This document shows, in pieces, positions 1,820 through 41,159 of a stretch of DNA of 48,615 nt. Under the pieces are notes generated by a model. That model saw only the letters and a list, made by a program, of their open reading frames with translations, was not told the origin of the DNA and made no database searches. The stretch comes from an uncultured Candidatus Peribacteria bacterium (lineage in GTDB: Bacteria > Patescibacteriota > Gracilibacteria > UBA4473), in assembly GCA_964459435.1 (NCBI GenBank), contig CAYWLU010000001.1:11151-59765 (forward strand), written 5' to 3'. Positions within the stretch are counted from its first letter, which is position 1. Every line of letters starts with the position of its first letter. Both the position numbers and the translations under genes were made by a program.

Positions 1820-2299
1820 ATGATTGCAGTAGCAAAAATCGGTGGACATCAAGAGATTGTCCAAATCGGCGACCAAATAGAAACAGATAAATTAGACACA
1901 GAAGTTGGAAAGACTATTTCTTTTGAAACTTTACTAATTAGTGAAGAAGACGGAACAAATTTTAAAGTTGGAACTCCTTTTTTAGAAGAAAAAGTAGAAG
2001 CTAAAATATTAGAACACGGACGAGACAAAAAGATTATCGTCTTCAAAATGAAACCAAGAAAAAGATACCGAAAAACACTCGGGCATCGTCAAGATTACAC
2101 TCTTATCGAAATCACTAAAATTGGAGCAAATAGTGCCAAACCTGCTAAAAAAGAAACAACTGTTAAAGAAACTAAAGTTGTAGAAAAAAAAGAAGTTAAA
2201 AAAGTAGCTCCAAAAAAGACGGTTAAAAAGACTGTAGCCAAAAAACCAGCCGTTAAAAAAGCTCCAGTAAAAAAGGTAGCCAAAAAATTGAAAAGTTAA
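1820..2299 (+). CDS. rplU: 50S ribosomal protein L21 with Lys/Ala/Pro-rich C-terminal tail
   Basis: MIAVAKIGGHQEIVQIGD...FKMKPRKRYRKTLGHRQDYTLIEITKI is a typical L21 core. Residues from about 100 to 159 form a KKxxK-rich extension. Confidence 0.93.
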   Translation: MIAVAKIGGHQEIVQIGDQIETDKLDTEVGKTISFETLLISEEDGTNFKVGTPFLEEKVEAKILEHGRDKKIIVFKMKPRKRYRKTLGHRQDYTLIEITKIGANSAKPAKKETTVKETKVVEKKEVKKVAPKKTVKKTVAKKPAVKKAPVKKVAKKLKS

Positions 2300-31178: not shown

Positions 31179-31360
31179 ACTCCTTCGCTTCGTTCAGTCG
31201 TTTCACCTCGTTCAAATACTCTGTATTTCTCACTTCTCTATACTCAGTCGCTTCGCTTCTTCGTGACGTCGTCGCACAAAAAGAAAATGCCTACAGCGTT
31301 TTCTTTTTTTAGTTCCTTGTATCGAACCTTTTTCGGTTCTCATACAAAACAAAAACCATC

Positions 31361-31392
31361 TAAAAATCAAAAATACCCACAAGGAGTATTTT
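31361..31392 (-). terminator. Weak AT-rich hairpin plus T-run downstream of tRNA-Ala
   Basis: Minus strand AAAATAC-tccttgtgg-GTATTTT, followed by tgattttta. It shares the TTGTGGGT motif with the tRNA-Arg terminator. Confidence 0.35.
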
Positions 31393-31399
31393 GAATTTT

Positions 31400-31476
31400 T
31401 GGTGGAGCATATCGGATTCGAACCGATGGCCTCATGCATGCCATGCATGCGCTCTAACCAGCTGAGCTAATGCCCC
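31400..31476 (-). tRNA. tRNA-Ala (anticodon GGC), CCA encoded
   Basis: The reverse complement GGGGCAT-TA-GCTC-AGCTGGTTA-GAGC-G-CATGC-ATGGCAT-GCATG-AGGCC-ATCGG-TTCGAAT-CCGAT-ATGCTCC-A-CCA folds as a cloverleaf. The G3:U70 Ala identity pair is present. Confidence 0.95.
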
Positions 31477-31594
31477 GTCGTCGCTAGGTGACTTCATTGC
31501 TTTCGTGAATTGCTCCGCAATTAACTCAGCTTATTCCGTCACCGCTCCTCTTCGCTCAAATGGAGATTCTCGAACTCATTATGCCCTTTTTAAA
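31477..31594 (-). ncRNA. Candidate structured GC-rich leader upstream of tRNA-Ala (homologous to the tRNA-Arg leader)
   Basis: The minus strand ends ..GGTGAC..(hairpin AATTGC-gga-GCAATT)..GTCACC-TAGCGACGAC, directly 5' of tRNA position +1. It aligns with 40823-40916. Confidence 0.3.
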
Positions 31595-31623
31595 CCCGGG
31601 TTCAAAATTTCCTAGAACCCGGG
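31595..31623. repeat. Family D palindromic element, intergenic copy (29 nt)
   Basis: CCCGGGTTCAAAATTTCCtAGAACCCGGG is the ribD/ribE 28-mer with one extra T in the loop. Confidence 0.85.
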
Positions 31624-31720
31624 TTAGAAAAGGGATTATTCGTTCTCAACTACCCCATTTTCGCGGGAACAAAAAACAGGAATACTTTAAAAAATTTTCA
31701 AAAAATGTAAACTCCTTCTG

Positions 31721-40649: not shown

Positions 40650-40690
40650 GGTGTAAGATTGACAATTTAGTTATTGAAAATACAATTTCT

Positions 40691-40916
40691 TCGCGAATAT
40701 GAGGTAGTTAAGGTAGTGCAGTCCTCCAAAAAATAGATCTTTTAATACTGCGAATACGGGGTAGCTGAATGCGAGTAGGTGTTGTCGAGTGTAGCGAGAC
40801 AATACCGTAAAACGAGCATGAAGACCTCCGTATAAGCAAGAGGAGGTGAGACGAAGTATGACGAGCTATCCCGCTGTGGCGGGATCGCGAGTCCAACGGG
40901 AGTCCTCACCGACGAC
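40691..40916 (+). ncRNA. Candidate structured GC-rich leader upstream of tRNA-Arg
   Basis: Locally much more GC-rich than its surroundings. It has an internal direct repeat GCGAATAYGRGGTAG (40692 and 40750), hairpins ACCTCC-12nt-GGAGGT (40824-40847) and ATCCCGC-tgtg-GCGGGAT (40868-40885), and an enclosing GGTGAG (40845-50) / CTCACC (40905-10) pairing. It ends GACGAC directly 5' of the tRNA. No match to the RNase P, SRP, tmRNA or riboswitch motifs I know. Confidence 0.3.
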
Positions 40917-40991
40917 GCCCCCGTAGTTCAATGGATAGAACAACGCCCTTCTAAGGCGACGATCTAGGTTCAATTCCTAGCGGGGGTACCA
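40917..40991 (+). tRNA. tRNA-Arg (anticodon TCT), CCA encoded
   Basis: GCCCCCG-TA-GTTC-AATGGATA-GAAC-A-ACGCC-CTTCTAA-GGCGA-CGAT-CTAGG-TTCAATT-CCTAG-CGGGGGT-A-CCA folds as a cloverleaf with a G1:U72 wobble and one A:A mismatch at the top of the anticodon stem. Confidence 0.88.
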
Positions 40992-41000
40992 GCTAAAAAA

Positions 41001-41037
41001 CTTTATTCGCCCCTTTGTGGGTGAGGAAAGTTTTTTT
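41001..41037 (+). terminator. Intrinsic terminator downstream of tRNA-Arg
   Basis: The stem CTTTATTCGCC / GGGTGAGGAAAG contains a few wobbles, has the loop cctttgt, and is followed by T7 at 41031-41037. Confidence 0.6.
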
Positions 41038-41144: not shown

Positions 41145-41159
41145 TTCCTAGCGGGGGTA
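41145..41159 (+). repeat. Partial copy of the tRNA-Arg 3' end (15 nt)
   Basis: ttcctagcgggggta is identical to 40974-40988, in the same orientation, 154 nt downstream of the tRNA. Confidence 0.8.

Follow-up and report, generated by a model that had tools for sequence, protein, structure and literature searches.

The 5′ leader of the tRNA-Arg gene described here is a copy of a lineage-specific, multi-copy structured RNA module that consists of two domains (D1 and D2) and a GACGA(C) tail. The module comprises about 165 nt, namely an irregular hairpin (D1, 88 nt), a second hairpin (D2, 77 nt), and the tail. A preliminary description of the region had suggested that it is either an RNA with a function or a mobile structured module located at tRNA 5′ flanks, and had rated the covariation between its two copies as weak evidence. 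This suggestion is supported by the present analysis. Covariation is strong over dozens of copies and 30 of 40 D2 copies abut the +1 position of a tRNA or transfer-messenger RNA (tmRNA). The core of the earlier proposal therefore stands, namely that an RNA structure is conserved and linked with the 5′ ends of tRNAs. Beyond that proposal, we report the true pairing of D1, the occurrence of the module at tmRNA genes and opposite antisense tRNAs, tandem arrays of D1, and the restriction of the module to one subclade.

The two copies in the window and their surroundings

The window, by which we mean the whole stretch of 48,615 nucleotides that was analysed, is ordinary chromosome. It encodes GuaA, RibD, MutS, Prs, TatD, PGI, and ComEC, and further products include a MiaB-like radical SAM enzyme, RuvA-YidD-M50, an M23/LysM peptidase, and an ELP3-like radical-SAM/GNAT protein. 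The ruvA gene adjoins tRNA-Ala, and the named close relatives of its product belong to Candidatus Gracilibacteria metagenome-assembled genomes (MAGs). The assembly GCA_021735575.1 is syntenic with the window. No transposase, integrase, or reverse transcriptase was found near the units in the gene content of the window.

The genes of tRNA-Arg(TCT) and tRNA-Ala(GGC) were located with ARAGORN and Rfam (Table 1). The high GC content that had been noticed in the 137 nt before tRNA-Arg (40780-40916) was confirmed, with 54.7% GC in this segment versus 33.9% in the window, and the GACGAC end that had been placed directly at the +1 position of the tRNA is indeed found there. As had been observed, the Arg leader can be aligned with the minus-strand region 5′ of tRNA-Ala, and the homology reaches further than was described, to position 31666; both leaders share the ending CGACGAC. 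The segment 40691-40916, which had been treated as one element, is better divided: positions 40748-40916 make up a complete unit, whereas the first 40 nt (40691-40730) are an internally deleted copy. The 15-mer GGTAGTGCAGTCCTC of this remnant is identical to D2 at three other loci, and the remnant gave no match with the covariance models R1 (for D1) and R2 (for D2).

With these two models exactly two full units are found in the window, also when the filters are switched off. The 19-nt motif GCGAAWAYGRGGTAGYTRA, which is common to both leaders, occurs three times in the window versus 0.15 expected occurrences. Four matches of the same motif in viral contigs were taken as chance, as all of them look coding and have no tRNA near. 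When the fold was compared with shuffled sequence, the Arg leader gave z = -3.2 and the Ala leader z = -5.9.

Table 1. Features of the Arg and Ala units and of their flanks (positions refer to the window)
Feature	Position	Strand	Remarks
Complete Arg unit	40748-40916	+	D1 + D2 + tail
Ala unit	31477-31666	-	second member of the RNA family in the window
Sigma-70-like promoter TTGACA-16-TACAAT	40659..40686	+	predicted by consensus scan only; 11/12 matches
Internally deleted unit remnant	40691..40730	+	D1 5′ start GCGAATATGAGGTAGTT joined to D2 3′ strand GGTAGTGCAGTCCTC
BoxA-like AGATCTTTTAA linker	40735..40745	+	directly 5′ of Arg D1; putative function
Arg D1	40748..40837	+	R1 102.7 bits, E 1.5e-24
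Arg D1 P0	40750-51/40836-37	+	
Arg D1 P1	40754-61/40826-33	+	holds the invariant G·U 40760·40827
Arg D1 short pairings	40765-66/40822-23 and 40775-76/40812-13	+	
Arg D1 P2	40769-72/40816-19	+	
Arg D1 P3	40778-86/40798-806	+	loop GAGUGUAGCGA 40787-97
Arg D2	40837..40916	+	R2 61.6 bits, E 3e-14; linker AAGAGGAG
Arg D2 closing helix	40845-52/40902-10	+	internal loop GAAGUAU / CAACGGGA
Arg D2 inner hairpin	40860-74/40879-93	+	with tandem G·A
Arg D2 tail GACGAC	40911-16	+	
tRNA-Arg(TCT)	40917..40991	+	CCA encoded; +1 directly after the D2 tail
Intrinsic-terminator-like hairpin and T-run	41001..41026	+	3′ of tRNA-Arg
Exact 15-nt copy of the tRNA-Arg 3′ end (40974-40988)	41145..41159	+	
Promoter-like TTTACA-16-TAAAGT	31684..31711	-	5′ of the Ala unit; 9/12 matches, weak
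Ala D1, variant with long P3 stem	31554..31666	-	R1 57 bits, E 8e-12; fold z = -5.9
Ala D2, tail GCGACGAC	31477..31553	-	R2 85.1 bits, E 2e-20
tRNA-Ala(GGC)	31400..31476	-	directly after the Ala D2 tail

Structure and covariation of the two domains

Thirty units were aligned, after which the alignment was divided into the domains D1 and D2. D1 (about 88 nt) is a single long irregular hairpin that is built from the helices P0, P1, P2, and a variable P3, which carries the cap GAGUGUAGCGAG. Helix P1 has the form AUNYGGGG / CCUCCRNAU, and its G·U pair is the same in all 22 of 22 sequences and thus invariant. The hairpin has two conserved internal loops, in each of which a tandem G·A is bordered by Watson-Crick pairs. 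In alignment A3, 95.8% of the cells of the specified structure are paired versus 32-52% when the partners are slid, and 17 of the 27 pairs show changes on both sides. The covariation score of D1 amounts to 0.586 versus 0.224 for shuffled alignments, and none of 500 shuffles scored as high. A different pairing had originally been proposed for this region, namely an ACCTCC-loop-GGAGGT hairpin. This hairpin fails: only 74% of its cells are paired, which equals the shuffled level, and it shows no compensatory changes. The partner of CCUCC is GGGG at 40758-40761 (helix P1), not GGAGG.

D2 (about 77 nt) opens with the purine linker AAGAGGAG, part of which pairs with GCGAC of the tail. Its closing helix of 6-9 bp varies widely in sequence (GGUGAGAC, GCGAUGAC, GUGAUCAC, GGACAC, GAGAAAAC, and others) and is followed by the internal loop GAAGUA / GCGAA and by an inner hairpin, which contains a tandem G·A in most copies. 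Despite the differing helix sequences, one D2 architecture holds for all of the 29 sequences folded. The exchange of GGTGAG/CTCACC for GGTGAC/GTCACC between the two leaders and the inner hairpin of differing sequence, both pointed out in the preliminary description, belong to genuine D2 helices that covary over 42 distinct copies. In alignment A5, which was fitted to the model and thus leans towards structure, 95.6% of the cells are paired and double changes occur in 13 of 14 pairs. Between D2 and the tRNA there is GA(C) plus at most about four more nucleotides. The earlier proposal had been made dependent on covariation with more copies, and such covariation is strong in both domains. The paralogues are, however, mosaic, with near-identical D1 joined to different types of D2, and gene conversion could therefore inflate the count of independent covariation events.

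The copies differ by single-nucleotide indels, which together with the frequent G·U pairs points to a constraint on the RNA of the given strand and not on a protein or on DNA. Several likenesses to known motifs were considered and dropped. Those noticed by eye, which concern the 5S rRNA loop E, the sarcin-ricin loop, the tRNA 5′ end GGUAGCUC, the T-arm GUUCGA, and the hammerhead CUGA...GAA core, have their matching positions in freely covarying helices. A canonical kink-turn or box C/D motif would not fit the tandem G·A loops, as the 3-nt bulge does not lie next to the G·A pairs in the modelled structure. A small open reading frame (ORF) after the Shine-Dalgarno-like AAGAGGAGG of the Arg copy was also rejected, being kept neither in the Ala copy nor in type-B D2.

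Occurrence at tRNA and tmRNA genes

A 26-nt degenerate pattern derived from the conserved 5′ block led to 23 metagenome loci, and a composite pattern to 11 loci in six Gracilibacteria/'Peribacteria' MAGs as well as to five chance matches in high-GC genomes. The composite-pattern matches in viral contigs and in high-GC genomes all fail R1 and were taken as chance. The searches show that the module is restricted to one Gracilibacteria subclade. Since all loci were fetched with a pattern derived from the module itself, the census is biased, and so are the numbers of tRNAs with and without a unit.

The window and the fetched loci, about 300 kb in total, contain 54 D1 and 43 D2 copies that are recognized by R1 and R2. 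Forty D2 copies were set against their neighbouring genes, partial and duplicate copies being left out. At 30 of them the end of D2 lies -1 to +3 nt from the +1 position of a tRNA or tmRNA on the same strand; these tRNAs represent 19 anticodons, and the presence at other tRNA loci that the preliminary description had called for is thereby established, with tmRNA in addition. Four others run up to the CCA end of a tRNA or tmRNA that is encoded on the opposite strand, at a distance of -2 to 0 nt, the partners being tmRNA (locus L016, 2098-2579), tRNA-Leu(UAA) (L019, 3086-3370), tRNA-Arg(CCU) (L021, 997-1230), and tRNA-Gly(GCC) (L048, 7305-7541). All four units are intact and convergent with their partners. 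The acceptor stem of the mirror tRNA starts about 4 nt past the tail, which is similar to the spacing of 0-4 nt in the sense cases. At L016 an AGCGAC tail is found 5′ of the tmRNA itself as well, so that this gene appears to have units on both sides.

A stand-alone unit is found at L020; it is convergent with the 16S 3′ end, and an intrinsic terminator lies about 60 nt 3′ of it. Tandem D1 copies with neither D2 nor tRNA between them occur at L007, L018, L019, L030, and L031. In the fetched loci a unit lies at the +1 position of 29 tRNA/tmRNA genes; two genes are operon-internal and one is located at a contig edge. Fourteen tRNAs of the same loci have no unit, and the short leaders that were read for these have no GACGAC tail. 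As such tRNAs possess ordinary short leaders, the module is not required for tRNA maturation. The tRNA-Leu of L022 has a minimal leader that consists of a hairpin and GCGACGAC.

Proposed release of the module by RNase P

We tentatively favour, with somewhat less than even confidence, the reading that the module is the payload, i.e., a leader RNA released by RNase P, for which the tRNA or mirror tRNA acts as the 3′-end processing signal. Transcription would begin at a promoter that belongs to the module, which would thus form the 5′ leader of tRNA or tmRNA precursors; co-transcription with the tRNA is suggested by the positions of promoters and terminators. A cut of RNase P at the +1 position of the tRNA or tmRNA would then free the module and define its 3′ end exactly. 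Strong expression, together with a 3′-end processing signal for the upstream RNA, would come from the tRNA gene, and the released RNA would act independently. That RNase P performs the release is suggested by the fact that tRNA and tmRNA, both of which are substrates of this enzyme, have little else in common (PMC4919922). In mitochondria, mirror tRNAs are also cut by RNase P (PMC5435911, PMC4919922). For the 30 D2 copies named above, the module ends at the +1 position as expected for an RNase P leader. The conserved loops of the module, i.e., the tandem G·A, the invariant G·U, and the purine linker AAGAGGAG, suggest that the RNA may serve as a protein-binding scaffold or as a decoy.

This reading is favoured because it alone explains the units at mirror tRNAs, the stand-alone unit, and the ordinary leaders of tRNAs without a module. 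The four units opposite tRNA or tmRNA genes and the stand-alone unit of L020 are joined by the tandem D1 arrays as observations in its support. On the other hand, the copies that stand alone or face a gene on the opposite strand could stem from recent rearrangements and not be maintained genes, and the helix end, which is only 3-6 nt away from the cleavage site, might hinder RNase P. The release of a payload, a role in cis, and the spread of a selfish repeat are not mutually exclusive.

Transcription signals and a possible role in cis

Promoter-like sites are located 5′ of both copies in the window and are near-consensus for the Arg copy and weaker for the Ala copy. From the promoter predicted at 40659..40686 the transcript of the Arg leader would begin near 40693. 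The terminator hairpins after the tRNAs have a common CCTT(T)GTGGGT core at 41005-41019, at about 31372-31385 on the minus strand, and at L023. Moreover, a boxA-like sequence (RYTCTTTRA) is found at most 45 nt 5′ of 22 of the 49 D1 copies considered (about 45%) versus 3.9% of random windows, its match being weak in the Ala copy of the window.

We consider it rather unlikely that the action of the module is confined to cis effects on the pre-tRNA or pre-tmRNA that carries it and that the module is waste once it has been cleaved off. In such a role it could recruit or position a diverged RNase P of the candidate phyla radiation (CPR), it could insulate the tRNA or chaperone its folding, or it could, together with the boxA-like element, bring about antitermination in the manner of nut sites or rrn leaders. 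A role in cis would agree with the exact fusion of the module at the +1 position of RNase P substrates only, with the conservation of the tail at positions -1 to -8, and with the minimal leader of the tRNA-Leu at L022, in which hairpin and tail are retained. In CPR bacteria RNase P RNAs are often reduced or without the UGG motif (PMC8172020), which would be in keeping with such a role. The frequency of the boxA-like sequence also fits, and a similar element is present in the 16S (L020) and 23S (L039) rRNA leaders. These same rRNA leaders, which were examined in the same genomes, contain neither D1 nor D2, however, and direct reading of the boxA-like sequence shows that it may equally be the 3′ strand of a small hairpin. 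The 14 tRNAs with short, tail-less ordinary leaders in the same loci speak against a role in cis as well, as do the intact units that stand opposite antisense tRNAs or alone, and the tandem D1 arrays would be hard to justify. At these loci (L020 1385-1500 and L039 5675-5745) the 16S and 23S genes are unlinked and lie on contigs of different assemblies, each with its own TTGACA promoter and a boxA-like GTTCTTT.

Mosaicism, locus differences and traces of insertion or duplication

The presence of the module varies at orthologous loci. One unit precedes tRNA-Ala next to ruvA in the window, and three units are located 5′ of ruvA at L007, the RuvA of which is 91% identical. At L010 (GCA_021735575.1; RuvA 72% identical) the tRNA-Ala is reversed and has a short leader without a recognizable unit, the search of this locus giving scraps only, all below 10 bits. 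The orthologous tRNA-Ala(GGC) genes by ruvA are thus found in opposite orientations (window 31400-31720 versus L010 4427-5059). An 18-nt copy of the tRNA-Ala 3′ end is located at L010 4686-4703, 182 nt past the gene.

At L047 (7145-7710) a unit on the minus strand lies between a SAM riboswitch and the start codon of metK, so that the riboswitch is now apart from its gene. This unit is bounded by a duplication of the first metK codons (27/31 positions). At L023, an element that consists of D2 only is directly followed by 33 nt (2169-2201, minus strand) that repeat the 3′ end of tRNA-Thr perfectly. These two loci were the only positive ones when all copies were tested for flanking duplications.

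In the window, 156 nt separate the tRNA-Arg 3′ end from its 15-nt copy at 41145-41159. This stretch (fold z = -4.4) includes four hairpins rich in GC besides the terminator, and the copy itself looks like an att-site or an insertion footprint at the 3′ end of the tRNA; footprints of this kind are also seen at L010 and L023. The regions 3′ of tRNA-Arg and of tRNA-Ala align weakly with each other. A second GCGACGACG was observed 125 nt 3′ of tRNA-Ala (31267-31330, minus strand), with the hairpin GAAAACGC-UGUA-GGCAUUUUC before it. A D2 tail in decay may be represented here, as the score with R2 is only 7.9 bits. The tRNA-Asn locus of L035 (860-1460, minus strand) carries three partial tRNA-Asn copies, each of which is broken by the hairpin TCCCGACAAGTCGGGA, and a small ORF that by eye resembles a GIY-YIG nuclease precedes the intact tRNA-Asn gene.

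It has to be considered whether the module is a selfish or neutral repeat (similar to MITE, SINE, or REP elements) that spreads or is multiplied by recombination, that has gathered at the ends of tRNA genes, and the RNA structure of which is kept for propagation. We regard this as unlikely. The multiple copies and mosaic combinations of D1 and D2, the one, three, and zero units at the tRNA-Ala/ruvA loci of the window, L007, and L010, the duplications at L047 and L023, the copied 3′ end of tRNA-Arg, and truncated copies such as 40691-40730 are what such a repeat would leave behind. Nevertheless, no transposase or reverse transcriptase is associated with the units, no terminal inverted repeats or transposases were noticed by the units on reading the sequences, and no flanking duplication was found at the D2 copies that abut a tRNA/tmRNA +1. 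The compensatory changes, the conserved loops, and the invariant G·U among diverged paralogues indicate long-term purifying selection on the RNA of each copy, and the single-nucleotide precision at the +1 position of about 20 different tRNAs needs selection or a targeting mechanism.

Sensing and coding explanations

A regulatory leader that senses a ligand or a tRNA, in the manner of a riboswitch or a T-box, and controls transcription of the tRNA is a very improbable explanation of the module. In its favour are the conserved structure of the 5′ leader, tandems that recall tandem riboswitches, and a sequence that would permit CCUCC to pair with either GGGG or GGAG, but the alternative CCUCC:GGAG helix is without covariation, and D2 is separated from the tRNA by neither a terminator nor any other expression platform. 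Furthermore, no Rfam match was obtained at E ≤ 10, and specifier-like variation is missing, as the same types of unit precede unrelated tRNAs.

A protein-coding or DNA-level feature (repeat domain, att site, or array of binding sites), for which a gene-caller ORF antisense over the three L007 units and an antisense 62-aa ORF in the window might be quoted, is barely credible in view of the single-nucleotide indels between copies, the many compensatory G·U pairs, for which the other strand would have C·A mismatches, and the orientation of every sense copy towards its tRNA. Spurious ORFs run antisense over the GC-rich units at L007 1-429 (+) and in the window at 40708-40896 (-), and such calls are likely a recurrent mis-annotation in Gracilibacteria MAGs.

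Comparison with known systems

Nothing in Rfam 15 overlaps the leader at E ≤ 10, and only the tRNAs match in the window. In 36 related loci Rfam recognizes tRNA, tmRNA, rRNA, and one SAM riboswitch and has no family for the module. No account of a tRNA-leader RNA from Gracilibacteria, Patescibacteria, or CPR came up in full-text searches of the literature. Self-cleaving ribozymes (hammerhead, twister, HDV-like, hatchet, and pistol) gave no match at E ≤ 10, and both domains of the module are unbranched hairpins.

Like ordinary leaders of pre-tRNA and pre-tmRNA, the module is located between promoter and +1 and would be removed by RNase P. Ordinary leaders are, however, short, unconserved, and unstructured, whereas the module occupies 165-450 nt, has a conserved two-domain fold that is common to at least 19 tRNA species and tmRNA, and is sometimes found in tandem. 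T-box leaders are likewise long, structured, equipped with tandem G·A motifs, and linked to tRNA. They precede genes of aminoacyl-tRNA synthetases or amino-acid genes, whereas the module precedes tRNA and tmRNA; moreover, the specifier loop, the T-box sequence, and the terminator are all missing in the module, which has no T-box match in Rfam.

The RtT RNA (Rfam RF00391) is formed by the 178-bp repeats of the tyrT operon of E. coli. It is a repeated structured RNA of a tRNA operon that is released by tRNA processing and contains copies of the tRNA 3′ end. RtT is located 3′ of the tRNA at a single locus in enterobacteria, whereas the units of the module lie 5′ of the tRNA and have no match with RF00391; the likeness in the copied tRNA 3′ end is limited to the separate 15-nt copy of tRNA-Arg. 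In rrn leaders and the lambda nut sites a boxA is combined with a hairpin, and in the module a boxA-like GYTCTTTAA is similarly followed by a conserved hairpin. The module differs in that neither of its domains occurs in the 16S and 23S leaders examined and that the boxA-like sequence accompanies only about 45% of the copies. REP/BIME, Correia/NEMIS, RUP, Rickettsia RPE, and tRNA-related SINEs are, like the module, short, non-coding, multi-copy, mosaic, and co-transcribed with their neighbours, and they share with it occasional signs of insertion. Strand-specific covariation with conserved internal loops is absent from them, and they are not tied with nucleotide precision to the +1 position of tRNAs.

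In mitochondrial tRNA punctuation, which includes mirror tRNAs, and in the MALAT1/MEN-beta-mascRNA system, the upstream RNA ends where a tRNA or tRNA-like structure starts, as does the module (PMC4919922, PMC5435911). The module is also found at four junctions with antisense (mirror) tRNAs, as in mitochondrial punctuation, and is known here from genomic junctions alone. The punctuation and mascRNA systems are eukaryotic or organellar, whereas the setting of the module is bacterial and involves genuine functional tRNAs. A form of bacterial tRNA punctuation, in which an RNA family would obtain its 3′ ends by RNase P at tRNAs and mirror tRNAs and would reach new tRNA ends by single-nucleotide-precise insertion or recombination, is possible, though we hold it to be doubtful. 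The closest analogies are functional and not homologous, and each of them matches one property and fails on others, which argues for the module being a new kind of element.

Meaning for the biology of the group

The module accounts for long 'empty' GC-rich intergenic regions and for spurious ORFs by tRNAs in Gracilibacteria MAGs, and the covariance models R1 and R2 can be used to annotate its copies. It is a possible case of targeting to the ends of tRNA genes, and it bears on the recognition of substrates by RNase P in CPR bacteria with unusual RNase P RNAs (PMC8172020). Genomes of CPR bacteria measure about 1 Mb, and yet 165-450 nt are spent at each tRNA locus that carries the module. If real, the module would represent an as yet undescribed class of non-coding RNA in bacteria of the CPR and would mean that bacterial tRNA genes can bear a conserved structured 'passenger' RNA.
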